Below are positions 26,939-63,615 of a stretch of 64,000 nt of DNA, piece by piece. The notes below the pieces were generated by a model. That model did not search any database, was not told the DNA's origin, and was given only the letters and a program-made list of their open reading frames with translations. Every line of letters starts with the position of its first letter. The first letter of the stretch is position 1. Origin of the DNA: Candidatus Sungiibacteriota bacterium (GTDB taxonomy: Bacteria > Patescibacteriota > Minisyncoccia > Sungbacterales > HO2-52-23). The position numbers and the translations under genes are program-made. The stretch covers positions 77,791-141,790 of the forward strand of contig JACPBG010000003.1 of NCBI GenBank assembly GCA_016180435.1. Reading direction: 5' to 3'.

Positions 26939-29071
26939 ATGCCAAGAGAATATCCTTTAGAGAGTACCAGAGATATCGGCATTATTGCCCATATTGATGC
27001 CGGAAAAACGACCGTAACCGAGCGGGTGCTTTTTTATACCGGCGTATCGCATAAAATCGGCGAGGTGCATGAGGGCGATACGGTGATGGATTGGATGGAG
27101 CAAGAGCGCGAAAGGGGAATTACTATTACGGCGGCCGCAACGAATGTGTTTTGGGTGCCGACGCATGTCGGAGAACTTAGAACTGAGAACTTAGAACTTA
27201 GAAAAAAGAACGAATACAGAATAAATATCATAGATACTCCGGGACATATTGATTTTACCGTGGAGGTTCAGCGCTCACTTCGGGTATTGGATGGCGCGGT
27301 GGTGGTTTTTGACGGAGTGGCCGGAGTTGAGCCGCAATCCGAAACCGTCTGGCGCCAAGCCGATAAATTTAAAGTTCCGCGCATGTGTTTTATAAATAAG
27401 CTTGACCGCATGGGCGCGTCATTTGAGCGCTCGCTCAATTCCATTTATGAGCGACTAACCCCGAATGCGGTTTCGGTGGCAATACCCATAGGACACGAAC
27501 AGGAACACGAAGGCGTGATTGACCTTATGCGCATGAAGTCCGTGAAGTTTCTGGGAGATAAAGGAGAAAAACTTGAATTTGTTGAGATACCCGAGAATTT
27601 GAAATCCTATGCCGAGGAATGGCGCCATAAAATGGTTGAAAAAATTTCGGAAACGGATGACGCGCTTACGGATAAATATCTGGAAGGCAAAGAGATGACT
27701 GTCGAGGAACTGCGTGGCGCTTTACGCCGCGCGACCATTGGATATCGGCTGGTTCCGGTATTTTGCGGATCGGCGCTTAAAAATAAAGGCGTGCAGTTGA
27801 TGCTGGACGGTGTGGTTGATTATCTGCCCTCTCCTTTGGATATGCCGCCGGTAAAAGGAACTCATCCCAAAACCGGTGCGGAAGAAATTCGCGAAGCGAA
27901 AGATGATGCGCCATTTGCCGCGCTTGCTTTTAAATTGCAAACCGATCCTTATGTGGGACAACTTACATATTTTAGGGTTTATTCGGGCATGCTTAAAGCC
28001 GGATCTTATGTTTTAAATTCGGTAAATGGAGATCAGGAGAGGGTGGGGCGGATTTTGCGCATGCATGCCAATACCCGCGAGGAACTGAAAGAAATCGGCG
28101 CCGGAAATATCGGTGCGATTGTCGGTCTTAAAAATACCCGTACCGGAGATACGCTTTGCGATCCGGAGCATCCGGTTGTGCTTGAAAAAATCGTATTTCC
28201 CGAGCCGGTGGTATCTTTGAAAATTGAGCCCAAGACCAAGGCTGACCAGGAAAAAATGGGACTGGCCCTGCGGCGTCTGGGCGAGGAGGACCCGACATTT
28301 CGCATTAAAGGCGACATTGAGACCGGTGATACCATTATTTCGGGTATGGGTGAACTTCATTTGGAAATTATTGTGGATCGCATGAAGCGCGAATTTTCCG
28401 TGGAGGCCAATGTGGGCCGGCCGCAGGTGGCTTATAAAGAAACCATTAAAAAAACCGCGGAAGCGGAAGGAAAATATATTCGTCAATCAGGCGGACGCGG
28501 ACAGTACGGACATGCGTGGCTTCGGGTTGAGCCGCGCGAGCGCGGAAAGGGATTTGAATTTCTTGACGAGATCAAAGGCGGTATAATTCCGCAAGAATAC
28601 ATTCCGGCGATTGAAAAAGGGATTAAGGAGGCCATGGAAAAAGGTGTTTTGGCGGGGTACCCACTGGTTGATATGGCGGTCGCGGTTTATGACGGATCAT
28701 ATCATGAAGTGGATTCGTCCGAGGCCGCATTCAAAATCGCGGGTTCCATGGCTTTGCAGGAGTGCGTTAAGCGCGCGGGACTTGTGCTGCTTGAGCCGAT
28801 TATGAAAGTGGAGGTTGTGACTCCGGAGCAGTTTCTGGGCGAGGTTACCGGGGATTTGAATTCCAAGCGTGCGCGGATTGAAGAAATGTCCGAGCGCGGC
28901 CTGGGAATTAAGGTGATTGACTGCAAAGTTCCGCTTTCGGAAATGTTCGGATATGTTACGACTCTTCGTTCCTTGACGCAAGGCAGAGCCAGTTTTACTA
29001 TGGAATTTGATCACTACGAGGAAGTCCCGAATAATATTGCGCAGCTTATAATTGAAGGGAAGCGGCAGTGA
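26939..29071 (+). CDS. fusA: Elongation factor G
   Basis: [23 protein letters not shown] and all five EF-G domains. Contains a family F-encoded insertion ([15 protein letters not shown]) between G2 and G3. Confidence 0.95.
27172..27212. repeat. Family F heptad-repeat half-element, in-frame inside fusA
   Basis: gagaacttagaactgagaacttagaacttagaaaaaagaac. Confidence 0.7.
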
Positions 29072-32993: not shown

Positions 32994-33098
32994 AGCAGTG
33001 ATGCTAATCCGATGCGAATTTAATGCCAATTTAGCGAATTGCGAATGCGTTATCATTAGCAATTTGTAGATTGGCATAAGATTTGTAGATTGGCATCA
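32994..33098. repeat. Family B element
   Basis: agcagtgatgctaatccgatgcgaatttaatgccaatttagcgaattgcgaat...attagcaatttgtagattggcataagatttgtagattggcatca. Confidence 0.8.
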
Positions 33099-34627: not shown

Positions 34628-35251
34628 ATGAAGTTTATCTTAGGTGAAAAAATAGAAATGTCGCAGATTTTTGATAAAGACGGCAATGTGGTACCGGTAA
34701 CTTTGGTGCGGGCAACTCCTAATGTGGTTTTGCGGGTAAAAACCAAAGAAAAAGACGGATATGAAGCGATGCAGGTTGGGTTTGGAATTAGAAAAGCGAA
34801 GAATATAAAAAAATCACAGCTCGGGCATTTCAAAGATTTAGGAAATTTCAGATATGTTCGTGAATTTCGAAAGCTACCAGCTACAAGCTACCAGCTGCCA
34901 GCTCGCGGGGAAAAGATTGATATCTCTATATTTCAAGAGGGAGATAGCGTAAAGGTGAGTGGTATTTCCAAGGGCAAAGGATTCCAGGGCGTGATGAAAC
35001 GGCACGGATTTCATGGGGCTCCGGCGTCGCACGGAACCAAGCATGCGCATCGCGAGCCGGGGTCCATTGGTGGTGCCGGGCGCGCCGGAGGAAGGGTTGC
35101 TAAAGGAATGCGAATGGCGGGACGTATGGGAAGCGATAGGGTTACGGTGAGAAATTTGAAAATCGCGAAAATTGATTTAGAGAATAATATGTTGGCGATA
35201 AAAGGGGCAATTCCCGGAAGAAGAGGAACATTGTTGGAAATTAGAGGGTAA
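34628..35251 (+). CDS. rplC: 50S ribosomal protein L3
   Basis: MKFILGEKIEMSQIFDKDGNVVPVTLV ... GKGFQGVMKRHGF. Confidence 0.9.
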   Translation: MKFILGEKIEMSQIFDKDGNVVPVTLVRATPNVVLRVKTKEKDGYEAMQVGFGIRKAKNIKKSQLGHFKDLGNFRYVREFRKLPATSYQLPARGEKIDISIFQEGDSVKVSGISKGKGFQGVMKRHGFHGAPASHGTKHAHREPGSIGGAGRAGGRVAKGMRMAGRMGSDRVTVRNLKIAKIDLENNMLAIKGAIPGRRGTLLEIRG

Positions 35252-35376: not shown

Positions 35377-36015
35377 ATGAAAATCAAAGTTTACAACCAA
35401 GAAGGAAAAGAAGCAGGAACTGCGGATTTGCCGGACGGTGTGTTTGGGTTGAAGTGGAACGCGGATTTGGTGCATCAGGTGGTAACTGGCCAGGCCGCGA
35501 ATTTGCGTAGAGGCACGGCGCATGCTAAAGGCAGAAGTGAAGTTCGCGGAGGCGGGAGAAAACCCTGGCGGCAAAAAGGCACCGGTCGCGCGCGCCATGG
35601 CTCTATCCGTTCTCCCATTTGGATCGGAGGAGGGGTTACGCATGGCCCCTTGAAAGAAAAAAGTTATCATAAAAAAATCAACAAAAAGATGGCAAAAAAA
35701 GCCCTTTTTACGGCACTTTCCGCCAAAGCGCGGGACAATGAAATTGTTATTTTGGAGGACTTGAAATTCTCGGAAGCTAAAACCAGGTATGCCGCAGAAA
35801 TTTTCAGGAATTTATCGCAAGTTGACGCGCTCAAAGACATTGTAAAAGCCAAAACTCTGCTTGCGTTTCCGGAAAAAAGCCATGATTTAAAGCGCGCATT
35901 TCGTAATTTGCCGCGAGTCGGCATGGACGAGGCCAGGAATTTGAATGCGCATGAAGTATTGCAGTACCGTTATATTCTTATGTCCAAAGCTGTGTTAGGA
36001 ATATTTAAGCAGTGA
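35377..36015 (+). CDS. rplD: 50S ribosomal protein L4
   Basis: GGGRKPWRQKGTGRARHGSIRSPIWIGGGV. Stop TGA is contributed by the family B element. Confidence 0.9.
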   Translation: MKIKVYNQEGKEAGTADLPDGVFGLKWNADLVHQVVTGQAANLRRGTAHAKGRSEVRGGGRKPWRQKGTGRARHGSIRSPIWIGGGVTHGPLKEKSYHKKINKKMAKKALFTALSAKARDNEIVILEDLKFSEAKTRYAAEIFRNLSQVDALKDIVKAKTLLAFPEKSHDLKRAFRNLPRVGMDEARNLNAHEVLQYRYILMSKAVLGIFKQ

Positions 36016-36172
36016 TGCCAATCCTATGCGAATTTAATGCCAATCTGGCGAATTGCCAATAAATATTCTTCGAGTGAAATCGAGATGATACCTTAATGTA
36101 TATTCTCGACAAGCTCGAATAGTAACGATTCGTAATTTGTAGATTAGCACTTCATTTGTAGATTCGCATCAT
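36009..36172. repeat. Family B element, long variant
   Basis: agcagtgatgccaatcctatgcgaatttaatgcc...ttcttcgagtgaaatcgagatgatacc...gattcgcatca. Confidence 0.8.
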
Positions 36173-36702: not shown

Positions 36703-37533
36703 ATGAAAAAGTACAATCCCACATCATCCGCGCGGCGGCAAATGGAGACAGCGGAATATAAATCCGTACTTACCCGTACGGAGCCGTTGAAATCGCTTGC
36801 ATACGGAAGGAAGCGGGATGTGGGCAGGAATTCGTTTGGCCGCATAACCACGCGCCATAAAGGCGGCGGCGAGAAGCGTCTTTGGCGCGAAGTAGATTTT
36901 TTATATGATAAGCGCGATGTCCCGGCGAATGTAGAATCAATTGAATACGATCCGAATCGCTCGGCTTTTATTGCACTGCTTTCGTATCGCGACGGTGAAA
37001 AGCGTTATATTCTTGCTCCGCAGAATTTGCGTGTCGGAAATAAAGTCATAACATCCGAGCGCGCGCCGGTTGAAGTCGGGAATCGCATGCCTTTGAAGAA
37101 TATACCCGTAGGAACATTCGTATATAATGTTGAACTTGCTGAAGGTCGCGGAGCGCAATTAGTTCGTTCGGCCGGCGCGTATGCAACCGTTCTTGCCCAA
37201 GAGGGAGAATATACCCACCTTTCATTTCCGTCCAAGGAAATTAGAATGGTGCGAAGCGGCAATTGGGCTTCTGTCGGCGCGCTTTCCAATGAAGAGCATG
37301 GCAAAGTGATCTGGGGCAAAGCCGGAAGAATGCGCCATAAGGGGGTGCGGCCAACCGTACGGGGATCGGCCATGAATCCGGTGGATCATCCGCATGGCGG
37401 AGGCGAGGGCCGGACGCTGATCGGGCGCAGGCGAGGCCCGGCAACTCCGTGGGGAAAACCGGCTAGGGGTGTGAAAACCCGTAAGAGAAACAAGAAGTCG
37501 AGTAAATTTATTTTACATAAAAGAAGGAAGTAG
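36703..37533 (+). CDS. rplB: 50S ribosomal protein L2
   Basis: RNIPVGTFVYNVEL...GRGAQLVRSAG...VRGSAMNPVDHPHGGGEGR. Confidence 0.92.
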   Translation: MKKYNPTSSARRQMETAEYKSVLTRTEPLKSLAYGRKRDVGRNSFGRITTRHKGGGEKRLWREVDFLYDKRDVPANVESIEYDPNRSAFIALLSYRDGEKRYILAPQNLRVGNKVITSERAPVEVGNRMPLKNIPVGTFVYNVELAEGRGAQLVRSAGAYATVLAQEGEYTHLSFPSKEIRMVRSGNWASVGALSNEEHGKVIWGKAGRMRHKGVRPTVRGSAMNPVDHPHGGGEGRTLIGRRRGPATPWGKPARGVKTRKRNKKSSKFILHKRRK

Positions 37534-37652
37534 CCACAGATTATCACAGATTTCACTACAGATTGCCACAGATCACAGATAAGATTTCATTCTTCCGTTC
37601 CATCATCTGTGATCTGTGGACATCTGTGTAGCATCTGTGCGCATCTGTTGGA
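37534..37652. repeat. Family H element
   Basis: ccacagattatcacagatttcactacagattgccacagatcacagat ... catctgtgatctgtggacatctgtgtagcatctgtgcgcatctgttgg. Confidence 0.8.
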
Positions 37653-37655
37653 ATT

Positions 37656-38641: not shown

Positions 38642-38725
<84 letters not shown>

Positions 38726-39463
38726 GTGACTCATCGAGTTCATCCATACATATTTCGGATTGGGCATACGACGAATTGGAAGTCGCGTTGGTTTAGGGCG
38801 CATAAATTTTCTGAATATTTGCGTGAAGATGCCATATTGCGCGAGTTGCTGGAGAAAAAATTGCGCAAGAATCATATTGAGGCGATTGAAATTGAACGAG
38901 CTCCCAATGTTGTGCGGATATTTGTAAGAACTGCGCGCCCCGGAATGATTATAGGACGCGGAGGAGAGGGATCCGAAAAATTAAAAAATGAGATTACCGC
39001 ATATCTTGCCAAAATACGTAAGAGATTCAATAGCCCCGTGGTTCAAAAAGAGGATCTGAAGCTTACCATTGAAGAGGTGCGCGCTCCGGAGACCCATGCC
39101 CTAATCGCAGGGCAGATGATCGCAGATGAGATTGAAAAGCGTATTCCATTTCGCCGCGTGTTAAAACAGGCCGTTGAGAGGATTTTTGGATCAAAGGGCG
39201 TTGAGGGCGTTAAAATAATGATAAAAGGGCGTCTGGACGGCAATGAAATTGCGCGCACCGAATGGCTGAAAAGAGGACGGATTCCGCTGCAAACCATTCG
39301 TGCCAACATAGATTTTGCGCATCGTACTGCCTATACCACATATGGGACGATTGGGATAAAAGTATGGATTTATAAAGGAGATATATTTGATAAGAACTTA
39401 GATCTTAGAACTAAGAACTTAGACAAGCATTTAGAACTTAGAACCAAGAACTTAGAAAATTAA
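38726..39463 (+). CDS. rpsC: 30S ribosomal protein S3 with repeat-encoded C-terminal tail
   Basis: KH and S3_C domains (IGRGGEGSEKLKNE...). The last 24 aa (DKNLDLRTKNLDKHLELRTKNLEN) are encoded by the family F element. Confidence 0.9.
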   Translation: MTHRVHPYIFRIGHTTNWKSRWFRAHKFSEYLREDAILRELLEKKLRKNHIEAIEIERAPNVVRIFVRTARPGMIIGRGGEGSEKLKNEITAYLAKIRKRFNSPVVQKEDLKLTIEEVRAPETHALIAGQMIADEIEKRIPFRRVLKQAVERIFGSKGVEGVKIMIKGRLDGNEIARTEWLKRGRIPLQTIRANIDFAHRTAYTTYGTIGIKVWIYKGDIFDKNLDLRTKNLDKHLELRTKNLEN

Positions 39464-39515
39464 ACTATTTACTAAGTTCTAAACGCTAAGTTCTGAGATC
39501 TTTTGCGAAGCAAAC
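39392..39515. repeat. Family F element overlapping the rpsC 3' end and the intergenic gap
   Basis: taagaacttagatcttagaactaagaacttagacaagcatttagaacttagaaccaagaacttagaaaattaaactatttactaagttctaaacgctaagttctgagatcttttgcgaagcaaac, then ATG of rplP. Confidence 0.8.
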
Positions 39516-39920
39516 ATGTTTCAGCCCAAAAAAGTAAAACATAGGAAGTGGCATAAAGGCAGGACCAAAGGCCTTGAATATAGATCCAATAATATAGCGT
39601 TTGGATCTTACGGTCTAAAAGGGCTTGAGGCCCGTTGGATTACTGCGCGTCAGATTGAGGCGGCGCGCCGCGCCATGACGCGATATGTCGAGCGCGGGGG
39701 AAAAATTTGGATCCGTATTTTTCCGGATAAGCCGGTTACTAAAAAACCCCCCGAGGTGACGCTGGGAGGAGGAAAAGGCGCGGTGGATCATTATGTGGTT
39801 CCGGTGCGGCCCGGCAAAATACTTTTTGAAATAGACGGCGTGTTACCGGATATTGCGGAGGAGGCATTGCGTTTGGCTGCTCATAAGATGCCGATAAAGA
39901 CAAAGATTATAAGGAAATAA
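39516..39920 (+). CDS. rplP: 50S ribosomal protein L16
   Basis: [19 protein letters not shown]...[28 protein letters not shown]. Confidence 0.9.
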
Positions 39921-40317: not shown

Positions 40318-40608
40318 ATGAGGAAACTTAAAGGTATTGTCACATCCGATAAGATGCAAAAGACCGTCGGAGTGCGAGTAGATCGGTTAAAAAAACACCC
40401 AAAATACGGGAAATATTTTCGTACAACGCAAAAGTTTAAAGCACATGACGAAAAAGGGGAATATAAAATTGGCGATCTGGTTATTATTCAGGAAACAAGG
40501 CCGCTGTCCAAAGATAAAAGATGGCGTGCAGTTTCTTTAGTAAAACGCGGGATTGTGGAAACAGATGAGAAGGAAGAAAGCAGTGATGCCAATCCGATGC
40601 GAATTTAA
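40318..40608 (+). CDS. rpsQ: 30S ribosomal protein S17, C-terminus extended into the B element
   Basis: KGIVTSDKMQKTVGVRVDRLKKHPKYGK. The final SSDANPMRI* is encoded by family B sequence. Confidence 0.85.
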   Translation: MRKLKGIVTSDKMQKTVGVRVDRLKKHPKYGKYFRTTQKFKAHDEKGEYKIGDLVIIQETRPLSKDKRWRAVSLVKRGIVETDEKEESSDANPMRI

Positions 40609-40743
40609 TGCCAATCTGGCGAATTGCCAATAATTATTCTTCGAGTGTAATCGAGAAGTACCTTAGGGTATTATTCTCGACAAGCTCGAATGATAACCGA
40701 TTCGCAATTTGTAGATTAGCATAAGATTTGTAGATTGGCATCA
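40579..40743. repeat. Family B element, long variant
   Basis: agcagtgatgccaatccgatgcgaatttaatgccaatctggcgaattgccaat...ttcttcgagtgtaatcgagaag...gattggcatca. Confidence 0.8.
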
Positions 40744-40750
40744 TATTAAA

Positions 40751-41116
40751 ATGATCCAGCTTCGTTCTATGGTAAAAGTGGCAGATAATTCTGGGGCTGT
40801 TTTGCTCCAAGTTTTTCAGGTATCGCGCGGATCCCGCCATCGTTATGCGCGTATTGGCGATATGGTTGTTGCTTCGGTAAAAATTGCCGAACCTGGCAAG
40901 GCGGTTAAGAAAAAAGACGTTGTACACGCAGTGATTGTGCGAACGCGATCCCCGTATCGTCGCAAGGATGGGACCTATGTGCGTTTTGATGATAATGCCG
41001 CAGTAATACTTGACGGGACAGAACCCAAAGGAGGAAGGATTTTTGGTCCGGTAGCCCGGGAATTGCGCGATAGAGGATTTACAAAAATTGTTTCATTGGC
41101 GTCAGAAGTCGTATAA
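40751..41116 (+). CDS. rplN: 50S ribosomal protein L14
   Basis: [16 protein letters not shown]...[11 protein letters not shown]. Confidence 0.9.
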
Positions 41117-41280
41117 AGCAGTGATGCCAATCCTATGCGAATTTAATGCCAATCCGGCGAATTGCCAATAATTATTCTTCGAGTGAAATCGAGATGATAC
41201 CTTAATGTATATTCTCGACAAGCTCGAATAGTAACGATTCGTAATTTGTAGATTAGCATAAGATTTGTAGATTGGCATCA
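41117..41280. repeat. Family B element, long variant
   Basis: agcagtgatgccaatcctatgcgaatttaatgccaatccggcgaattgccaat...gattggcatca. Confidence 0.8.
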
Positions 41281-41606: not shown

Positions 41607-42149
41607 ATGCCGATCCAATCTTTACAAGAGCGATATAATAAAGACATTGTGCCGGCAATGGTGAAGCGATTCGGATATAAAAATATAATGGCCGTTCCAC
41701 GGATCCAAAAGGTTGTTTTGAATTGCGGAGTTGGGAAATTGCGCGACGAGAAACAGCGGGAAGAAGTGATCAAGTTTTTGACTTTAATTGCCGGTCAAAA
41801 GCCTTCGCCGCGCTCTGCGAAAAAAGCCATAGCGTCATTTAAAACGCGTAAAGGTCTTGTTATAGGATATCAAGTGACATTACGGGGAAGGCGCATGTAT
41901 GATTTCATTTCCAGGTTCACAGATATAGCGCTCCCGCGCACCCGTGATTTTAGGGGAATTGATGCAAAATCGTTTGATAGCGGCGGGAATTTGACAATTG
42001 GAATTAAAGAGCATATAGTATTTCCTGAAATGATCGGAGAGGATTACCATTTTTTGTTCGGCCTTGAAGTTACGATAGTGACCACGGCTCCAAGGCGAGA
42101 AGAGGGGGTTGAATTATTAAAGTTGATGGGATTCCCAATAAAGCAGTGA
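41607..42149 (+). CDS. rplE: 50S ribosomal protein L5
   Basis: NIMAVPRIQKVVLNCGVG...GMDITIVTTA-like core. Stop TGA is contributed by the B element. Confidence 0.9.
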   Translation: MPIQSLQERYNKDIVPAMVKRFGYKNIMAVPRIQKVVLNCGVGKLRDEKQREEVIKFLTLIAGQKPSPRSAKKAIASFKTRKGLVIGYQVTLRGRRMYDFISRFTDIALPRTRDFRGIDAKSFDSGGNLTIGIKEHIVFPEMIGEDYHFLFGLEVTIVTTAPRREEGVELLKLMGFPIKQ

Positions 42150-42256
42150 TGCCAATCCGATGCGAATTTAATGCCAATCTGGCGAATTGCGAATACCAAA
42201 TAAAGGAGTTTATTAGCAATTTGTAGATTAGCATAAGATTTGTAGATTGGCATCAT
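42141..42256. repeat. Family B element
   Basis: agcagtgatgccaatccgatgcgaatttaatgccaatctggcgaattgcgaat...gcataagatttgtagattggcatca. Confidence 0.8.
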
Positions 42257-42453: not shown

Positions 42454-42538
42454 CTTTACGAAATACGAATCATTACGAATGTACGAATACATTTTATCAG
42501 ATTATTCGTAAATTCGTATATATTAGTATTTCGTAAAG
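42454..42538. repeat. Family A element
   Basis: ctttacgaaatacgaatcattacgaatgtacgaatac...attcgtaaattcgtatatattagtatttcgtaaag. Confidence 0.8.
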
Positions 42539-44328: not shown

Positions 44329-44826
44329 ATGGCAAGACCCCGAGAGCGAAAATTGAATTCGGAGTTTGAACGTGAGCGGTCGGAATTCGACCAGCGCGTT
44401 TTAGATATCAGGCGGACGGCCCGTGTGGTTGCGGGCGGCCGGCGTTTTAGTTTTCGGGCAGCCGTCATTGTGGGTAATCGCAAGGGCCGAATCGGGTTTG
44501 GGATGGGAAAGGGAATTGATGTATCCGCTGCCGTGGAAAAAGCCGTTCATCGGGCCAAAAAAGAATTGATAAATATTCCGCTCACCAAGAGCTTTTCAAT
44601 ACCTCACGGAGTCAGCGGCAAGGCGGCCGCCGCTCGGGTAATTTTGAAGCCGGCGGTTGAAGGCCGGGGACTTGTGGCTGGCGGCCCGGTACGGGCGATC
44701 GCGGACCTCGCAGGGATTAAGAATCTTACCGCCAAAATTCTTGGCCGTACTCCGAATAAATTGAACAATGCTAAAGCGGTGATAGAAGCGTTAAAACACT
44801 TGAAGAATTTAGAACAGAGAACTTAA
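44329..44826 (+). CDS. rpsE: 30S ribosomal protein S5
   Basis: RTARVVAGGRRFSFRAAVIVGNRKGRIGFGMGKG. Confidence 0.9.
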   Translation: MARPRERKLNSEFERERSEFDQRVLDIRRTARVVAGGRRFSFRAAVIVGNRKGRIGFGMGKGIDVSAAVEKAVHRAKKELINIPLTKSFSIPHGVSGKAAAARVILKPAVEGRGLVAGGPVRAIADLAGIKNLTAKILGRTPNKLNNAKAVIEALKHLKNLEQRT

Positions 44827-47334: not shown

Positions 47335-48051
47335 ATGAACGAACCTATTTCATCAAAAAATAAATTTGCTATTAGTGTAATGGGTCCGCCGGGCTCCGGA
47401 AAAGGAACACAGGCGCAGATACTTGCCGGCGGACTTGAGGCCTTTCATTTTGTCACGAGTGTCGAGGGCAAAAAATATATTGCCGCCCATGACGATCCCG
47501 AAACAAAACGTCAAGAAGTCAGATATAAAAAAGGACTGCTTTTTGAATCTCCCTGGACACTCCGCGTGGTACAAGAAAAAACGCAGCGTGTTTTTGAGGA
47601 CGGGCTGAGTATTGTTTATGACGGTTCACCGCGTACCCCGCTTGAAGCAGAAAAACTGATCCCGTTTCTCATTAAACTTTTCGGCAAAGAGTGTGTCGTG
47701 GCCGTGGAACTTAAAGTCGGTGAAGCCGAATTGAGATCGCGTCTTTCCAAAAGGCGGGTATGCAGTCTTGATCATTCCCACGCTTTTATTGACTCGGAAA
47801 ATCATCATATTGGAGATTTATGTCCCAAGATGGATGGGGGAGTGTTGCAAAAAAGGGAGATTGACGAATCGGCGCTTTTTGAAACACGCATGGGAGAATT
47901 TAGAAATTTGACTATACCGGCCATTGAATTTTTTCATAAGGAGGACGTGCTTATTGTTATCAATGGCGAGCAGTCGATTGAAAATGTGCGGCGCGATATT
48001 GATGAGGCGTTTGCCAAAAGATTCGGTAAGCGGTGGCCCCGTGGAGTATGA
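47335..48051 (+). CDS. adk: Adenylate kinase
   Basis: MGPPGSGKGTQAQIL P-loop. Classic secY-adk-map order; stop overlaps the map start (ATGA). Confidence 0.8.
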   Translation: MNEPISSKNKFAISVMGPPGSGKGTQAQILAGGLEAFHFVTSVEGKKYIAAHDDPETKRQEVRYKKGLLFESPWTLRVVQEKTQRVFEDGLSIVYDGSPRTPLEAEKLIPFLIKLFGKECVVAVELKVGEAELRSRLSKRRVCSLDHSHAFIDSENHHIGDLCPKMDGGVLQKREIDESALFETRMGEFRNLTIPAIEFFHKEDVLIVINGEQSIENVRRDIDEAFAKRFGKRWPRGV

Positions 48052-48857
48052 TTACGATTAAAACTACAGAAGAAATTGCTATATTGCGAGAAGGAGGCAG
48101 ACGGCTCGCAGAAATTTTGCAAAAGCTGGTTGAGGCGTCTTGTCCCGGCGTATCGGATTTTGAGCTTGATGTTCTGGCGGAGGAACTTATTTTAGCATGC
48201 GGAGGAAAACCGGCATTTAAGGGATACAGGATCAAGGAAACGCGCGTTGCGTTTCCCGCTTCCATTTGCGTGTCGATTAATGACGAGGTGGTGCACGGGA
48301 TCCCGCGCAAAAACCGGATCTTAAAAGATGGTGATATTGTCGGGATTGATATAGGAATGCAGTGGCCGAATCAAGAACTTAGAACTAAGAACTTAGAACT
48401 TAGAAATATAAGAGGAATGTATACGGATATGGCGGTAACTATCGGGGTGGGTAAAATTTCGGCAGAAGCCGAACGGCTGATTCAAACAACCCGATCTGCA
48501 TTAGATGTCGGTATTCGGACGGTACGTCCGGGTGCGCATGTCGGAGATATAGGATGCGCCGTGGAGGAGGTTCTAAAACGCGAAAAACTCGGGATTATAA
48601 GGGATCTTGCCGGACACGGCGTGGGGCATGATCTTCATGAAGAGCCGCTTATTCCGAATTACGGAATGCGCGGCGCCGGAGTAGAATTAAAAGAGGGCAT
48701 GGTTATTGCTATTGAACCCATGGCAACTTTGGGGGGATGGCGGATTAAGCTTGATCGAGATGAGTGGACGATCCGTACCGCTGATCGGAGTTTGGCGGCG
48801 CATTTTGAGCATACTTTAGTTGTTACAAAAAGCGGAGCGGAGATATTGACGAAATAG
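48048..48857 (+). CDS. map: Methionine aminopeptidase type I with repeat-encoded insertion
   Basis: Pita-bread fold with metal ligands (DIGMQ ... HGVGHDLHEEP ... AIEPM). Family F insert QELRTKNLELRN lies after DIG. Confidence 0.85.
   Translation: MITIKTTEEIAILREGGRRLAEILQKLVEASCPGVSDFELDVLAEELILACGGKPAFKGYRIKETRVAFPASICVSINDEVVHGIPRKNRILKDGDIVGIDIGMQWPNQELRTKNLELRNIRGMYTDMAVTIGVGKISAEAERLIQTTRSALDVGIRTVRPGAHVGDIGCAVEEVLKREKLGIIRDLAGHGVGHDLHEEPLIPNYGMRGAGVELKEGMVIAIEPMATLGGWRIKLDRDEWTIRTADRSLAAHFEHTLVVTKSGAEILTK
48373..48406. repeat. Family F heptad-repeat half-element, in-frame inside map
   Basis: caagaacttagaactaagaacttagaacttagaaat. Confidence 0.7.
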
Positions 48858-48889
48858 TTGTTTGGTGAATTGTGTGTTATTATTATGAG

Positions 48890-48985
48890 GTAGATGCAAT
48901 ATTAAACGCCACTGTTACGCAAAATTAGACGCAAATTGCGTTTAGATATTGCGTAAATTAGTTTGCGTTTGAAGTTGCTTCTAAA
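48890..48985. repeat. Family K ('acgcaaa/ttgcgt') iteron element
   Basis: ttacgcaaaattagacgcaaattgcgtttagatattgcgtaaattagtttgcgtttgaag. Confidence 0.5.
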
Positions 48986-48987
48986 AT

Positions 48988-49377
48988 ATGAAATACATGG
49001 GTCTTGATTATGGAGAAAGGCGGATCGGGGTTGCGGTTTCTGACGCCCAAGGCCGGGTGGCTTTTCCAAAGAAATTGGTTTTTAACCGGGGCAATTCCCA
49101 GATGATGGAGCAATTGCAGGCCGTGGTTAAGGATGAGCATATTTCCCGGATCGTAGTGGGTCTTCCGGTAGGATTGGATGGCAATGAAACGGCGCAAACA
49201 TCAGCCACGCGTGAATTTGCCGATGCGCTCCGTAATGTTACTGGAGTTGCGGTAGAGTTTGAAAATGAGATGCTGACAACGCACATGGTGCAGGGCCTGG
49301 GAGTTCCCCGCGAGCATACGGACGAGGCCGCGGCAGCCGTGATTTTACAATCATACCTTGATAAAATAAATCACTAA
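48988..49377 (+). CDS. ruvX: Putative Holliday-junction resolvase/pre-16S rRNA nuclease YqgF (RuvX)
   Basis: MGLDYGERRIGVAVSD...RIVVGLPVGLDGNE. Confidence 0.75.
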   Translation: MKYMGLDYGERRIGVAVSDAQGRVAFPKKLVFNRGNSQMMEQLQAVVKDEHISRIVVGLPVGLDGNETAQTSATREFADALRNVTGVAVEFENEMLTTHMVQGLGVPREHTDEAAAAVILQSYLDKINH

Positions 49378-49461
49378 TTTACACGAATTTGGTCACGAAT
49401 TTCACGAATTACGTAAATTTATTCGTGATATCTGTGTTCAAATTTGTGAATATTCGCGAAA
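49378..49461. repeat. Family J ('cacgaatt/attcgtg') iteron element
   Basis: ttacacgaatttggtcacgaatttcacgaattacgtaaatttattcgtgatatctgtgttcaaatttgtgaatattcgcg. Confidence 0.5.
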
Positions 49462-50202
49462 ATGTTTTTAAGTTGGATCATCCCCGCCTATAACGAAGAA
49501 AAGCGTATCGAAAAAACTCTTTTTGAAGTGGATGCTTATTTGATGTCCAAAAATTTTCCCGGCGGATATGAAATTATAGTGGTTGATTCGTCCTCAACTG
49601 ATAACACGGCGGATTTGGTGAGGAAACTTTCATCGCGCATACCCCGGTTATCGCTTAGGATAGTAGATAATAAAGGCAAGGGCTGGGCTGTGCATGAGGG
49701 AATGTTAAATTCCTCCGGGGATATGCGTATTTTTTCCGATGCGGATAACTCCGTATCGCCGGATCAGCTTAATGGCTTCATTCCGTTTTTGTGTGCCGGC
49801 GCCAAGAAAGACACGTGTTTTGACGTGGTCATCGGTTCTATCGAGGCGGGTGGAGCGACTATTGAAGAAAATGCCCAATGGTATCGGCGGGCTCTCGGCA
49901 GGATATCAAAACTAATTATACGCATTGTTTCCGGTCTTTGGGAAATTCGCGATACCCAGCGCGGATTCAAGTTATTTTCAAAACGAGCGGCTGAGGCGGT
50001 TTTTACGCGCCAAACCATTTTTGCCTGGGGCTTTGATATTGAGGTACTGCTCGTTGCCAAGCGGCGCAATTTTGCCATAAAAGAAGTGCCGGTAAAATGG
50101 ATAAATGCCGGTGATTCCAAAGTGAGTATTGGCGCTTATGTCAGCACATTCAAGGAATTATTGCAGATAAAATGGAACGATACCCGTGGAAAATATAAAT
50201 AA
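49462..50202 (+). CDS. Family 2 glycosyltransferase (dolichyl-phosphate sugar transferase-like)
   Basis: IIPAYNEE...EIIVVDSSSTDNT...DAD motif. Confidence 0.7.
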   Translation: MFLSWIIPAYNEEKRIEKTLFEVDAYLMSKNFPGGYEIIVVDSSSTDNTADLVRKLSSRIPRLSLRIVDNKGKGWAVHEGMLNSSGDMRIFSDADNSVSPDQLNGFIPFLCAGAKKDTCFDVVIGSIEAGGATIEENAQWYRRALGRISKLIIRIVSGLWEIRDTQRGFKLFSKRAAEAVFTRQTIFAWGFDIEVLLVAKRRNFAIKEVPVKWINAGDSKVSIGAYVSTFKELLQIKWNDTRGKYK

Positions 50203-51595: not shown

Positions 51596-51680
51596 TTTAC
51601 GAAATACGAATCATTACGAATGTACGAATATGGCATGGCAAATTAATTCGTAAATTCGTATATATTCGTATTTCGTAAAG
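51596..51680. repeat. Family A element
   Basis: ttttacgaaatacgaatcattacgaatgtacgaatatggc...attaattcgtaaattcgtatatattcgtatttcgtaaag, then at + ATG of tpiA. Confidence 0.8.
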
Positions 51681-55983: not shown

Positions 55984-56107
55984 ATCCTGTACACAAATCC
56001 ACTAATGAGCACACAAATCCACAAATGGGATAAGTAGTCGTGATTCGTGGATTGGTGTATCAATTCGTGGATTGGTGTATCAATTCGTGGATTGGTGTGT
56101 TTGTTTT
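55984..56107. repeat. Family C element with triplicated right-arm iteron
   Basis: atcctgtacacaaatccactaatgagcacacaaatccacaaatggg...cgtgattcgtggattggtgtatcaattcgtggattggtgtatcaattcgtggattggtgtgtttg. Confidence 0.8.
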
Positions 56108-56108
56108 T

Positions 56109-56543
56109 ATGGAAAAAATAATTGTCTATACCGATGGCGGCGCCCGGGGAAATCCTGGTCCGGCGGCTATCGGGGTTGTTATTAAGGATTTAAATGGCCA
56201 TACTATTAAAAGTTATGGCGAAGCAATTGGGAATACGACTAATAATGAAGCGGAATACCGGGCGGTGGTTTTGGCATTGCAGAAACTTAAACTTATTTTT
56301 GGCGGAAAGAAAACAGAAAAACTATCGGTAGAGTTTCGAATGGACAGCGAACTGGTGGCGTGCCAGCTTAAGGGAGAATATAAGATTGAAGAAGAGCGCC
56401 TGTTTCCGCACTTCATAAAAATATGGAATCTAAAGATGGATTTTCGCGAAATTGTATTTAATCACATCCCCCGGGAAAAAAATAAAGAGGCAGACCGGTT
56501 AGTGAATGAGGCGCTGGATAAAGAGCAGGAAAAATTATTTTAA
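56109..56543 (+). CDS. rnhA: Ribonuclease HI
   Basis: IVYTDGGARGNPGPAAIGVV...NNEAEYRAVVLAL...NHIPREKNKEADRL. Confidence 0.8.
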   Translation: MEKIIVYTDGGARGNPGPAAIGVVIKDLNGHTIKSYGEAIGNTTNNEAEYRAVVLALQKLKLIFGGKKTEKLSVEFRMDSELVACQLKGEYKIEEERLFPHFIKIWNLKMDFREIVFNHIPREKNKEADRLVNEALDKEQEKLF

Positions 56544-56576
56544 CAAAAACCCGCGTAGGCGGATTTTTGTTATCCT

Positions 56577-56600
56577 TGATGCATCTATAAGCCGAATTCT
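56577..56600. terminator. Bidirectional hairpin terminator (rnhA on plus, rnpB on minus)
   Basis: aaaaacccgcgtaggcggatttttg. Confidence 0.6.
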
Positions 56601-56603
56601 GTT

Positions 56604-57093
56604 CCGCATTTTTTTATATTTTTGCGGAGATGATCATTTATCTAGGCCAAAGATTTCTCATTTGGCTCAAGCGGATTTTCCGCAATTGCGGATTACCTTG
56701 CACCGGATAGGAGTTTTTCACCGCGTATTGTTGCCAGTACGCGCTGTGAGCTTTTACTTTTACCTCGCCGAAGCGAAGCTTATCCCGCGCGAAGGCGGGC
56801 TCACTCTTTTCACCCTTACCTCCTCCACCATAAAAACCTTTAGAGTTTTTTTGATGACGATCGGCGGTATTGTTTCTGTGACACTTTCCCGGTCATGGCG
56901 GCCGTTAGCCGCTATCTCTAACGCTGCATAGCAGCGTAGAACTTAGAACCAAGATCTTAGAACTTAGAAAAACGACTAAGATCTAAGTTCTAATACTCTA
57001 AGTTCTGCGTTGCTATGCAACGCTGGTGTTCGGACTTTCCTCCCCCCAGTAATGTTTTGCATTAATGGGAGCGATCATCCAATGCATCAAGGT
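56604..57093 (-). ncRNA. rnpB: RNase P RNA (bacterial type), interrupted by a family F palindromic insertion
   Basis: Minus strand shows ggaggaaagtccgaacacc (P4 5' strand), gtcacagaaac, ggtaagggtgaaaagagtgagcc, ggtgcaaggtaatccgc, gcttgagccaaatgag...ggcctagataaatgatc...gcggaacagaattcggcttatagatg (E. coli M1-like 3' third). P1 pairs ccttgatgcat/atgcatcaagg. Confidence 0.75.
56935..57004. repeat. Family F palindromic element inserted inside rnpB
   Basis: tagaacttagaaccaagatcttagaacttagaaaaacgactaagatctaagttctaatactctaagttct, flanked by hairpins acgctgcatagcagcgt and gcgttgctatgcaacgc. Confidence 0.75.
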
Positions 57094-58172: not shown

Positions 58173-59513
<1,341 letters not shown>

Positions 59514-59665
59514 GCAGTGATGCCAATCCGATGCGAATTTAATGCCAATCTGGCGAATTGCGAATAATTATTCTTCGAGTGAAATCGAGAAGATACCTTA
59601 AATGTATATTCTCGACCCGCTTCGCTCTCGCTACAGCGAGGCGAGCAGGCTTGTAGATTGGCATC
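59514..59665. repeat. Family B element, long variant with rearranged right arm
   Basis: gcagtgatgccaatccgatgcgaatttaatgccaatctggcgaattgcgaat...ttcttcgagtgaaatcgagaag...gattggcatcacacc, then tATG. Confidence 0.75.
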
Positions 59666-60397: not shown

Positions 60398-60503
60398 ATC
60401 CTGTACACGAATCCACTAATGAGCACACTAATCCACAAATAACTAAAAAGTATTCATGATTCGTGGATTAGGGTAAACATTCGTTGATTAGTGTGTTTAA
60501 TTG
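60398..60503. repeat. Family C element
   Basis: atcctgtacacgaatccactaatgagcacactaatccacaaat...catgattcgtggattagggtaaacattcgttgattagtgtgtttaattgtt. Confidence 0.8.
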
Positions 60504-60505
60504 TT

Positions 60506-61030
60506 ATGCAAGAAAAAAATTCTATCAATGAAATAATCAAACAGATTCGGACGCAGGAAGACGCAGGTGCGTTTAGCGAAGGCGCGGATATTTTGGAGGA
60601 AGGGATATATTATCGTGATCCTTCGGCGTTGCGCGATAAATTGCGAAGCCGCCTGCCGCAAAGGATTGATCTTGCGTTAGGGGGCGAGGCGGACAAATTT
60701 TTGTCTAAAAAGGATGCGGACGGCTTAAGATCGTTCATAGCGTCTCTCCGCGGGGCCATCAAGAATTTGCGGATTTTGCGTCTTGAGCTTGCGTTTGATC
60801 CGACCGGAGAAACAATCGATTACATAAGTTCATGGGTAAAACGCGAGATAGGGCCGGATATGATTTTGGACTTAGGGCGCGACCTCTCGATTCGCGGCGG
60901 CGCGCGCATCATATTTCACGGAAAATTGGTGGAAAAAAGCCTGGGAACGATGATCGCATCCTGGATTGAGCGCGACAGAGAAAAAATAAAAGAGTCGTTG
61001 CGGCACGCCGTAACCGTGAGAAACCAGTAA
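60506..61030 (+). CDS. atpH: F-type ATP synthase subunit delta (OSCP)
   Basis: Position between atpF and atpA; OSCP-like helical N-domain. Start ATG at 60506; the track GTG at 60491 lies in the repeat. Confidence 0.65.
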   Translation: MQEKNSINEIIKQIRTQEDAGAFSEGADILEEGIYYRDPSALRDKLRSRLPQRIDLALGGEADKFLSKKDADGLRSFIASLRGAIKNLRILRLELAFDPTGETIDYISSWVKREIGPDMILDLGRDLSIRGGARIIFHGKLVEKSLGTMIASWIERDREKIKESLRHAVTVRNQ

Positions 61031-61123
61031 ACGAGAACTTAGAACCAAGAACTAAGAACTTAGAAAATTAAACTACTCGCTAAGTTCTAAGATCTATATG
61101 CTAAGTTCTTTTGCGAAGCAAAC
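61031..61123. repeat. Family F palindromic element with start-proximal tail
   Basis: cgagaacttagaaccaagaactaagaacttagaaaattaaactactcgctaagttctaagatctatatgctaagttcttttgcgaagcaaac, then GTG of atpA. Confidence 0.8.
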
Positions 61124-62602
61124 GTGGAGGATTTCAATTTCTATCTCAATCGTATCGGTGAAATCGGCTTTGTAAAAAAAGTCGTGCCGCCGATCATATA
61201 TGCCGAGGGTTTGCCGGGCGCCACGCCGGAAGAGGTTGTTTTAACCGAATCCGGCGAGATCTCCACCGTTACCGCCATACGTGAGGATGCGGTGGAGCTT
61301 TTAAGTTTTTCACGAACGCCTTTACGGGTGGGCACGCGCTTGGCGCGAAGCGCTGCGCGCTTTGAAATTCCCCTGGGTCCCGAACTTCTGGGGTCAATTA
61401 TTGACCCCCTGGGGCATTCGCTTGATCCATCGCATCCCCTGCCGCTTCGCGGCGAGCGCCGTCCGGTGGATATTGTTCCATCCGGAATCCAGTCGCGGGC
61501 GCGCATACGCCGGCCGTGCGAAACCGGCAGCACCGCCATTGATCTTATGATCCCTTTGGGAAAGGGCCAGCGGGAACTTGTGATCGGCGATCAAAAAACC
61601 GGGAAATCAAGATTTCTTTTGCGCTCGTTACTCACGCAGGTTCGTCAGGGCGCGATTGGAGTATATGCGGCTATTGGGAAACCGCAAATCACGGTCAAAC
61701 AAGTTGAGGGGTTTTTGCGGGAGAATAAGATATTTGAAAAAGCAGTTATGGTTGTTTCCGAATCGGACGATCCGGCAAGTTTGGCGTACCTGACGCCTTA
61801 TGTCGCCATGACCATTGCGGAGTATTTTCGGGATGCGGGGAATGATGTTTTTCTTGTGCTGGACGATTTGTCTCTTCACGCCAAGGCCTATCGCGAGATT
61901 TCTCTTCTGGGGCGCAGATATCCCGGCAGAAATTCATATCCGGGCGATATATTTTACGCGCATGCGCGTTTGCTTGAGCGTGCCGGAAATTTTAAGCACG
62001 CGCGCGGTGAGCGGGCGATAACCTGCCTTCCGGTGATTGAAACCGTGGAGGGGGATTTGACCGGGTACATTCAAACTAACCTCATGTCTATGACCGATGG
62101 CCATCTTTTTTTCGATCACCGCCTATTTGTGGAAGGGCGGCGGCCAGCCGTGGATCCATTTTTATCGGTAACCCGCGTGGGGCATCAGGTACAATCCGCA
62201 TTGAAACTTGAAATCGGCCGGGCGCTTATATCATTTTTGCGCGAGGCCAATGCGCTGCATAATTTTGCGAGTTTCGGCGCAGAGCTCGGGGAGCATGTCA
62301 GAAAAATTTTTGCCAAAGAAGAACGCGTTATGCAGTTTCTCGATCAGACCGTATACGATTCTCTCGCATCCAATTTGCAGCTTCTGTTATTCGGCATGGC
62401 TTGGGGCGATATGTGGGAAAATATGTCTTCCCTGGAGATGCGTTCCACAATTCAGAAAAACGTTTTTTTACATGAGACCAACCGGGATTTTCGTAATCGC
62501 GTTGAGCAGGTAATCGGCGGCGCAAATAGCCTGCCGGCGCTCTTGGAAAGAGTAAGGGATTTTGGCGTATCGGTCTCGCCAGTAGAGGCTAAACCTCGAT
62601 AG
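61124..62602 (+). CDS. atpA: F-type ATP synthase subunit alpha
   Basis: P-loop GDQKTGKS, DDLS... (Walker B), ~500 aa; GTG start. Confidence 0.85.
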   Translation: MEDFNFYLNRIGEIGFVKKVVPPIIYAEGLPGATPEEVVLTESGEISTVTAIREDAVELLSFSRTPLRVGTRLARSAARFEIPLGPELLGSIIDPLGHSLDPSHPLPLRGERRPVDIVPSGIQSRARIRRPCETGSTAIDLMIPLGKGQRELVIGDQKTGKSRFLLRSLLTQVRQGAIGVYAAIGKPQITVKQVEGFLRENKIFEKAVMVVSESDDPASLAYLTPYVAMTIAEYFRDAGNDVFLVLDDLSLHAKAYREISLLGRRYPGRNSYPGDIFYAHARLLERAGNFKHARGERAITCLPVIETVEGDLTGYIQTNLMSMTDGHLFFDHRLFVEGRRPAVDPFLSVTRVGHQVQSALKLEIGRALISFLREANALHNFASFGAELGEHVRKIFAKEERVMQFLDQTVYDSLASNLQLLLFGMAWGDMWENMSSLEMRSTIQKNVFLHETNRDFRNRVEQVIGGANSLPALLERVRDFGVSVSPVEAKPR

Positions 62603-63527: not shown

Positions 63528-63615
63528 CATCAGCGAATAACGAATCCTTCGCGAATTTACGAATACTGGAATTCGTAATTCGTATATTCGTACGAGATTC
63601 GTTATTCGACGATGT
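63528..63615. repeat. Family A' element
   Basis: catcagcgaataacgaatccttcgcgaatttacgaatactggaattcgtaattcgtatattcgtacgagattcgttattcgacgatg. Confidence 0.75.

Follow-up and report, generated by a model that had tools for sequence, protein, structure and literature searches.

Is a short insertion in the catalytic domain of an essential enzyme a feature of the protein, or of the DNA that happens to encode it? The question is raised by map, the gene for type I methionine aminopeptidase (MetAP), in a 64,000-nucleotide stretch of the genome of a Candidatus Sungiibacteriota bacterium (contig JACPBG010000003.1; the whole stretch is termed the window hereafter). Shortly after the conserved DIG motif, this gene carries a run of 7-bp units that is translated in frame, and the same word is found in the gene for elongation factor G (EF-G). 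We consider it probable, though far from assured, that the map insert is a heptanucleotide simple-sequence module lodged in a permissive MetAP loop, which originated and is maintained at the DNA level by slippage or conversion. The insert behaves as repeat DNA tolerated by the protein and not as a designed protein feature. It is recognized as repeat DNA by its period of 7 bp, which is not a multiple of three, by its identity to a family of intergenic hairpins, by the single-base repair of its stop codon, and by the unrelated peptides that stand at the same place in orthologs.

The heptad array and the catalytic core of MetAP

The map gene (48048 to 48857, plus strand) encodes 269 amino acids, and its start ATG at 48048 overlaps the stop codon of adk via ATGA. 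The product is 100% identical to P0001, annotated as 'type I methionyl aminopeptidase, Candidatus Sungbacteria', which carries PF00557, and its Protein Data Bank matches reach E = 3.5e-60 with the Thermotoga MetAP 1o0x over the full length. The enzyme is a type I MetAP (peptidase M24A) with the pita-bread domain PF00557.

The array occupies 48374 to 48405 on the plus strand and reads AGAACTT AGAACTA AGAACTT AGAACTT AGAA. Tandem Repeats Finder describes it as 4.6 copies of a period of 7 over 32 bp, with 92% matches; it consists of head-to-tail 7-bp units beyond chance, as do the heptanucleotide long simple-sequence repeats (LSSRs) and short tandemly repeated repetitive sequences (STRRs). With up to 2 mismatches allowed, AACTTAGAACTTAGAA has 30 matches in the 64-kb window, compared with 0.06 expected and a maximum of 1 in 100 shuffles. 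An earlier note on this DNA had claimed an in-frame insert in map that encodes ELRTKNLELR after DIG, and both the open reading frame (ORF) and the codons (CAA GAA CTT AGA ACT AAG AAC TTA GAA CTT AGA AAT, read as QELRTKNLELRN, i.e., Q-E-L-R-T-K-N-L-E-L-R-N) confirm it. The string quoted there, caagaacttagaactaagaacttagaacttagaaat, is present as well, at 48372 to 48407; the position given for it, 48373 to 48406, lies one base inside each end.

Assemblers can be misled by short repeats, and the possibility of a collapsed repeat or a chimera had been raised for this insert. In the independent Logan assembly of run SRR12113390, a 2825-bp contig (L081) matches window positions 47374 to 50198 with 100% identity and reproduces the array without any difference, which makes misassembly of the map array very unlikely. 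The 32-bp array is also shorter than the read length, the map ORF is intact and has a compensating base that repairs a stop codon, and arrays occur at the same map site in many independent assemblies of relatives. Taken with the Logan contig, these points leave an assembly artefact with a negligible probability.

Coding copies in the window show repair of stop codons. In a perfect AGAACTT array, every frame meets a TAG in each 21 bases (on the opposite strand, a TAA). The three coding copies that are fully internal, in map, in the EF-G gene and in an ORF with a metallo-β-lactamase (MBL) fold, are each changed at the one in-frame stop. The second unit in map is AGAACTA, by which the in-frame TAG becomes AAG (Lys); the second unit in EF-G is AGAACTG, by which TAG becomes GAG at the same place as the map change. 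One unit of the MBL copy reads TCTTCGT, so that the in-frame TAA is removed (TT>GA on the AGAACTT strand; TAA>TTC as read). Ortholog arrays with stop-free units are perfect (TTTCCAA in locus L003 and AAAATCA in locus L022, both 100%).

In a phmmer alignment to 1o0x, the window MetAP shows one clean insertion of 15 residues, PNQELRTKNLELRNI (48366 to 48410, plus strand), which includes QELRTKNLELRN and lies between the GIDIG strand and the YTDMA strand. Following a suggestion in the earlier note, we examined the register of the metal ligands in 34 aligned MetAPs and 1o0x, and all five (D, D, H, E, E) are aligned. They are, all on the plus strand, the Asp of GIDIG (48348 to 48350; column D100, equivalent to E. 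coli D97 and aligned to VDVG of 1o0x), the Asp of YTDMA (48426 to 48428; column D126, equivalent to E. coli D108 and likewise aligned to 1o0x), a His (48615 to 48617; column H189), and two Glu residues (48714 to 48716 and 48807 to 48809; columns E222 and E253). D100, D126, H189, E222, and E253 are invariant among the 34 MetAPs, the insert lies wholly between D100 and D126, and the catalytic core is untouched by it. An AlphaFold2 model of the protein (mean pLDDT, the predicted local distance difference test score, of 89) has strands at residues 96–105 and 123–132 and a helix at 108–113 (pLDDT 84–93). According to this model, the insert would be an excursion at the tip of the β-hairpin that joins the two Asp ligands, and part of it is predicted to form a short helix.

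Arrays at the same site in related genomes

We fetched map and its surroundings from 80 GTDB genomes. The loop between the two Asp ligands has 8 residues in its basal form and 15 to 43 residues in many Sungbacteria. In at least a dozen genomes (no fewer than 12–14 of the loci covered), it contains period-7 arrays of 29–36 bp, placed a few bases past the Trp-Pro codons, with a variety of units: AGAATTT (L082), AGAATTC (L021), AGAATTA (L019), AAAAATT (L018), AAAATCA (L022), TTTCCAA (L003), AAGTATC (L031 and L002), GGCAAAT (L004), GAAACTG (L015), TCACGAA (L027), and CACCGAC (L066). The peptides at this place in orthologs are chemically unrelated, e.g. FPISNFQ, KYQVSSI, PTTYNLQ, and KSKIKNQ. The loops of L015 and L027 also contain a degenerate inverted arm, so that a whole hairpin is read in frame. 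Inserts without heptads occur in the loop as well: SEALAKEAGGRK and SAKATAGKP recur across scattered lineages (P0002, P0008, P0013, P0015, P0035, and others; loci L001, L043, L010, L032, and L034 are linked to such insert types) and presumably are translated from further repeat elements, richer in GC, of which these genomes have many.

The array of L082 reads AGAATTT AGAATTA AGAATTT AGAATTT AGAA and shares with the window array the codon phase, the flanking CAA and AAT codons, and the T-to-A change in unit 2. The two arrays differ by C versus T at position 5 in all four full units, with the consequences L>F, T>I, N=N, and L>F. In a homogenised 7-bp array, successive units place each unit position at all three codon positions in turn, so that no change of the unit is silent. 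The base that removes the stop is C in 3 of the 4 units of L021 and A in all units of L019. Outside the loop, the map genes of the window and L082 are 62% identical and their third codon positions 32% identical, i.e., essentially saturated, whereas 13 of 15 third positions are identical inside the loop. Pairs with L021 give the same picture (13/15 in the loop versus 39–41% outside). From these in-phase C/T changes and the contrast at third positions, it follows that the array evolves as a whole in its DNA, at a lower rate than silent sites. The unit differences between the window and L082 point to concerted evolution of the DNA.

Such conservation could instead be sought in the protein, with a helical and charged ELRTKNLELR selected for a function of MetAP or EF-G, e.g. 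a contact with the ribosome, and with the periodicity of the DNA incidental. The short helix of the insert is modelled with fair confidence (pLDDT 84–93), and the pattern E-x-R-x-x-N-x-E-x-R is common to the window, L082, and L021. Adaptation of the protein is nevertheless very unlikely, in our estimation: the codons for Glu and for Arg and Leu, which are six-fold degenerate, are identical across lineages that are otherwise saturated at synonymous sites, and orthologs have chemically unrelated peptides or none. Moreover, the same word stands in non-coding hairpins and in an RNA gene, and in the MBL copy translation follows the opposite strand, with a different peptide as the result. A protein-database search with an idealised (ELRTKNL)x6 gave two matches with E ~2.5 and was uninformative.

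With regard to the age of the array, L082, L021, and L019 (58–68% identical to the window MetAP outside the loop) have, in the same codon phase, an array homologous to that of the window, and hence a 7-bp array in this loop is old within Sungbacteria. The map copy is probably an old resident of the gene and not a recent insertion.

The AGAACTT family in the window

Sixteen AGAACTT arrays are present in the 64 kb. All copies in plus orientation start with AGAAC, end with TTAGAA, and measure ~32 bp, which defines a discrete module, (AGAACTT)4AGAA. Four copies are translated, namely those in map, in EF-G, in the MBL-fold ORF, and in the tail of ribosomal protein S3; the C-terminus of S5 (KNLEQRT, then stop; 44804 to 44825, plus strand) is a degenerate array of the same kind. 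The EF-G copy is a 32-bp module in frame at 27172 to 27203 (plus strand). The MBL copy (12769 to 12799) is in reverse orientation, on the minus strand, and in frame, and it encodes SLSSKFFVLSS before KVGHHGS; we take the ORF concerned (12128 to 13030, with the KVGHHGS motif) to resemble a ComEC-type C-terminal domain. At the end of S3, two arrays (39393 to 39457) are translated as the last 24 residues of the protein (DKNLDLRTKNLDKHLELRTKNLEN, then stop), and an inverted arm follows, forming a hairpin (39393 to 39501, plus strand; z of the fold −5.7).

The remaining copies are arms of long imperfect hairpins, which lie right after stop codons (L22, S3, L6) and before atpA. On the plus strand, one is located directly after the L22 stop (38644 to 38711; left arm a perfect (AGAACTT)x4.6; −32.9 kcal/mol, z −7.3), one after L6 (43750 to 43853; a near-duplicate of the S3 tail plus hairpin; z −4.4), and one between the ORF at 60491 to 61030 and atpA (61034 to 61109; z −4.9). 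Another, without an assigned strand, is found in the RNase P RNA gene (56928 to 57022; −44.5 kcal/mol, z −10.5). Compared with shuffled sequence, the five hairpin copies (four gene-adjacent, one in RNase P RNA) have z values of −4.4 to −10.5, and in this they agree with the repetitive extragenic palindromic (REP) and REPIN classes of extragenic hairpin repeats. The copies in map, EF-G, and the MBL-fold ORF are single arms without a partner and are unstructured (z +0.68, −0.91, and +0.69, respectively). The hairpins' right arms and the coding copies have complementary sequences.

Three of the hairpins share a 19-nt 3' module, CTTTTGCGRAGCAARCRTG (38710 to 38728, 39500 to 39518, and 61108 to 61126), whose last bases are the start codon of the gene that follows (S3, L16, or atpA). 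The GCGAAGC that it contains is a known mini-hairpin of very high stability. The whole stop-to-start spacer with this module looks like a reusable cassette. A ~110-bp, near-identical copy of the S3 tail follows L6 (43741 to 43853); it is open in the L6 frame past the L6 stop and has the same LEN end before a stop codon.

The hairpin at 56928 to 57022 belongs to a 119-nt insertion relative to the Rfam model of RNase P RNA, in its P8/P9 region; the model is matched on the minus strand at 56572 to 57090 (bacterial class A, 131 bits). The ORF at 56506 to 56931 (plus strand, no Pfam match) overlaps this gene and is therefore probably spurious. The Rfam search of the window found the RNase P RNA and two tRNAs only, and no RNA family at the arrays themselves. 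In relatives, the RNase P RNA has other insertions (L004, 416 nt; L008, 437 nt; L014, 548 nt), and a GTTACxx heptad run is located near the RNase P RNA of L008.

The earlier note had stressed that map and EF-G carry the word in the same reading frame. The EF-G copy is real, and the two arrays start and end at the same phase of the unit; the common frame is largely automatic, since a 7-bp array encodes one and the same cyclic 7-residue peptide whichever frame is read. It is the shared phase and the shared repair position that are informative. Relatives whose EF-G is 92% identical to that of the window have a different 25-residue loop, which indicates that the EF-G copy is probably recent. The EF-G loop varies from 8 to 30 residues and holds other inserts with a 7-residue period (TTNNQQPTTN, TSNQLPVT, TNYKLQTT). 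This loop (27154 to 27225, after ...FW) is a second hypervariable repeat trap in Sungbacteria (homologs P0121–P0240). A further insert that recurs in it is ARTDADxNADKRRKENE, the DNA of which has GCGGAC/GCGGAT words that are also present in intergenic arrays elsewhere.

One word shared by two essential enzymes is special to this genome; elsewhere, the loops of MetAP and EF-G have different words or none. The idea that every genome has one word common to map and EF-G was rejected, given the map arrays of L003 and L004 and the plain or different EF-G loops P0132 and P0133 (putative pairing). In another putative pair, the EF-G P0129 has an array and the MetAP of that genome (P0067) has none. Also rejected was the idea that the map word is the intergenic hairpin word of each genome, in the manner of DNA uptake sequences or uptake signal sequences (DUS/USS): at 13 other loci, the unit is absent within 10 kb on either side. 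A relaxed AGAAYTN scan of the other loci found only two stray arrays, and no consistent match was seen between the map unit and the hairpin after ruvX in six genomes. Since the map word of other genomes is absent elsewhere within 20 kb and their map and EF-G words differ, the spread of one word over many sites is particular to this genome.

Such spread might suggest a bona fide mobile element of the type of miniature inverted-repeat transposable elements (MITEs), REPs with their associated tyrosine transposases (REP/RAYT), or Rickettsia palindromic elements, which targeted permissive sites and reached map recently. The copies are scattered, and among them are complete hairpin cassettes with a common 3' module that contains the start codon of the following gene, a ~110-bp near-identical duplicate is present at S3 and L6, and both hairpin arms are in frame in the MetAP loops of L015 and L027. 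Cassettes have also been replaced at orthologous junctions in a relative with a 92% identical EF-G: its syntenic contig, L203, has a hairpin of 9-mer arrays after L22 instead of the AGAACTT hairpin, and its L3 loop differs, while the hairpin after L3 (ATCACAG/ATCTGTGA) is kept. However, no target-site duplications, terminal inverted repeats, or shared flanks accompany the copies in map, EF-G, and the MBL-fold ORF. The map copy consists of a single unstructured arm (z +0.68), and the homologous same-phase array in orthologs of 58–68% identity shows that the map array is old. No transposase was seen, though none was searched for and the Pfam scan covered 10 ORFs of the window. We therefore regard a recent mobile-element insertion as quite unlikely. 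The proposal in the earlier note, a mobile or expanding DNA motif in place of lineage-specific protein evolution, holds to the extent that repeat DNA makes up the insert, but nothing clearly marks the map copy as a mobile element newly inserted.

Slippage and conversion would act as follows. A 7-bp array at the MetAP site would be ancestral to a group of Sungbacteria, with a unit whose sequence drifts concertedly or gives way to another. Copying by strand slippage or template switching inside the array, together with conversion between arrays, may keep the units alike, and selection would remove only stop codons and intolerable peptides, the peptide itself being an essentially neutral by-product. 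In the present genome, the word would have spread further as a discrete 32-bp module or as a hairpin cassette, to the EF-G loop, the MBL-fold gene, the S3 tail, the gene for RNase P RNA, and several intergenic spacers in operons for ribosomal proteins and ATP synthase. The map array may even be the progenitor of the family.

Several points weigh against this account. Single-unit slippage would be lethal in an essential ORF, so that only 3-unit steps or length-neutral patch conversion can homogenise the array, and neither a 3-unit step nor patch conversion was seen directly. Indirect signs of copy-number change by slippage are given by P0018, which is longer than P0010 by exactly 7 residues, i.e., 3 units, and by the in-phase substitutions in all units. 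Conversion between loci cannot be general, because other genomes have no second copy of the map word within 10 kb on either side. The closest MetAP relatives (L031 with 77% identity, P0002, and P0003) have unrelated inserts, and the more distant L082 (68%) and L021 (58%) share the word, which means that wholesale replacement or lateral exchange must also occur. For L031, the closest MetAP in the genome set (77% outside the loop), the array is unrelated and 10 of 42 loop bases are identical. A neighbour-joining tree of loop-masked MetAPs shows the same patchiness and is too crude to date gains and losses. The sharp mode at 30–32 bp and the fixed phase are not predicted by simple slippage. Lastly, the consensus of the unit evolves several-fold more slowly than synonymous sites, which could mean a function at the nucleotide level.

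A function of this kind would make the array a nucleic-acid site for a protein or an antisense RNA that reads 7 nt, linking map, fusA, rpsC, rnpB, and operon junctions in a post-transcriptional or chromosomal circuit, with the peptide as its price. It would suit the conservation of third positions (13/15 in the array versus 32–41% in the rest of the gene), the discrete size and phase of the module, the concentration of copies in translation-apparatus genes including RNase P RNA, and the complementarity between the right arms of the hairpins and the coding copies. There are also precedents, as the TAACTGA repeats of Beggiatoaceae beside start codons have been suggested as target sites of S1, Csp, or CsrA-type regulators (PMC4679880), and a regulatory role was suggested for Nostoc heptamer repeats near start codons (bioRxiv 10.1101/2022.06.06.494920). 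On the other hand, many orthologs have no insert or an unrelated one, so the array is dispensable; the dozens of units per genome would need many readers; in other genomes, the word in map is not the one in EF-G; and no candidate factor was identified. We rate such a site as unlikely, though by no means negligible. The above-background conservation of the array is explicable without any nucleic-acid function by the lack of truly synonymous positions in a homogenised 7-bp unit, and a real sequence constraint is possible.

A broader form of this idea, which we consider slightly less likely still, would treat the ~31-bp heptad modules as a functional code, read by a factor or by complementary RNAs derived from the hairpins, with the loops of MetAP, EF-G, and L3 as landing pads and with the word co-evolving in each genome. 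Alternatively, it would have a dedicated enzyme write and rewrite arrays at fixed sites. The fixed size of ~31 bp, the fixed phase, and the conservation above the synonymous level leave room for a real function. The reading that we prefer remains that of a simple-sequence module carried in a permissive loop by slippage or conversion.

Heptad repeats in the lineage, in environmental DNA, and in known systems

Period 7 is the dominant repeat class of the lineage. In 660 kb of Sungbacteria-like loci, period-7 arrays reach 14.7 per 100 kb, compared with no more than 2.3 for other periods; period 14, at 7.1 per 100 kb, consists mostly of alternating heptads. The length of period-7 arrays has its mode at 30–32 bp (50 of 97 arrays), and dozens of different heptad units coexist in one genome. 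In a metagenome scan, (AGAACTT)n was found in more than 120 contigs (including L083–L162) with a GC content of 0.21–0.71, as arrays of 32–132 bp that often lie beside other heptads. Scans of viral contigs (L207–L269) gave 1 match for AGAACTT, 24 stretches for ATCAGTA, and 39 contigs for a TAACTGA rotation, several of them multi-copy. Other heptads thus match viral contigs as often or more, so the AGAACTT word is not special and we claim no enrichment for it. Heptad arrays seem to be widespread in uncultured genomes.

Among known systems, the AGAACTT arrays are full members only of the broad class of heptanucleotide simple-sequence repeats (SSRs). Heptamers of the STRR type are said to have been described in cyanobacteria by Mazel in 1990, and STRR arrays inside the RNase P RNA gene of heterocystous cyanobacteria were reportedly found by Vioque in 1997, a parallel to window positions 56928 to 57022. 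As in LSSRs and STRRs, tandem 7-bp units occur beyond chance, with many words per genome and mostly between genes. The present arrays differ in their patescibacterial host (Candidatus Sungbacteria), in their narrow length of ~31 bp, in the hairpin pairs between a stop codon and the next start, in their in-frame position in catalytic-domain loops of essential proteins, and in the traceability of orthologous arrays across genomes. In SSR-rich prokaryotes, no class of long SSRs is more common than heptanucleotides, whose proposed cause is slippage of the polymerase, with a footprint of ~7 nt (both from Mrazek 2007 as cited in PMC4679880).

TAACTGA direct repeats (2–6 copies) of marine Beggiatoaceae, Cyanobacteria, and Bacteroidetes are abundant in ribosomal-protein operons and near fusA and L3 (MacGregor 2015, PMC4679880). 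They are sometimes translated (LSVISYQ), and the stop codons of one strand restrict their position in ORFs (PMC4679880). The arrays described here resemble them as heptamer direct repeats that lie in ribosomal-protein operons and are sometimes translated, with AGAACTT and not TAACTGA as the unit. The TAACTGA repeats closely precede start codons; those inside ORFs lie for the most part at the ends of proteins or in hypothetical ones, whereas the present arrays occupy mid-domain positions in MetAP, EF-G, and L3 and also form hairpins.

Rickettsia palindromic elements, attributed to Ogata et al. in 2000, are said to be selfish DNA in frame in protein genes and also present in RNA genes; reportedly they are palindromes of 100–150 bp that encode 30–50 residues and are not tandem arrays. 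The AGAACTT family is like them in that it is dispersed in ORFs and non-coding DNA and is found in frame at surface sites of essential proteins, which it does not destroy. The inserted copies are not palindromes of 100–150 bp, as those in map, EF-G, and the MBL-fold ORF are single 32-bp arms, and, unlike the Rickettsia elements, the MetAP site is reused by different words in different genomes. Tandem repeats of Borgs are reportedly pervasive, fast-evolving, and perfect, in intergenic regions as well as in genes, where they add peptide segments and the units are said to be divisible by three. In contrast, the unit in the ORFs of the window is 7 bp, passes through all three frames, and gives a peptide period of 7 residues. 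The streptococcal MetAP1 of Arya et al. (2013) is said to be active with a 27-residue insert in the catalytic domain, at another position and with no origin from repeat DNA reported; it has in common with the window MetAP that a type I enzyme carries a lineage-specific insertion in this domain.

What appears to be new is the host lineage, the narrow size of the module, the stop-to-start hairpin cassettes, the mid-domain sites in essential enzymes, and the orthologous arrays with concerted change. If the reading as DNA-level repeats is true, non-triplet microsatellites persist for a long time inside the catalytic domains of MetAP, EF-G, and L3 and inside RNase P RNA, dragging codons along in concert, and they would offer a clean natural system in which repeat dynamics create and overwrite protein loops in minimal genomes. 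Hypervariable 'lineage-specific inserts' in marker proteins of Patescibacteria can be repeat DNA and should be masked in phylogenies; for structure-function work, such inserts call for caution against over-interpretation.

Other repeats were noticed along the way. Ribosomal protein L3 contains a solitary in-frame (AGCTACC)x4.6 (34872 to 34903), which encodes LPATSYQLPA and whose word is nowhere else in the window; the L3 loop of L203 is unrelated in sequence and similar in length to this array. Hairpins of 10-mer arrays (CACAGATTAT / ATCTGTGA) follow L3 (35250 to 35375) and the ORF ending at 37533 (37525 to 37655), and the one after L3 is conserved in L203 (15834 to 15940), unlike the AGAACTT hairpins. 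An intergenic family of ~70 nt, AAGCAGTGATGCCAATCC-ATGCGAATTTAATGCCAATCTGGCGAATTGC-AATAATTATTCTTCGAG, has six copies, each at or right after a stop codon (32995 to 33050, 36000 to 36075, 40570 to 40645, 41105 to 41180, 42135 to 42205, and 59505 to 59580).

Arrays of the 7–8-mer TACGAAT(A) are present at 2936 to 2983, 21857 to 21890, 42456 to 42493, 51645 to 51679, and 63570 to 63612, and also in L031, L003, L004, and L203; since this word recurs in several Sungbacteria, some heptad words are conserved across genomes. The array at 42456 is TTACGAATATACGAATACA, and arrays with the same consensus are found at L031:3783 and L004:4945. A perfect tandem of the 20-mer ATTCGTGGATTGGTGTATCA (x2.8, 100% identity; 56043 to 56098) stands at the start of the ORF at 56040 to 56543.

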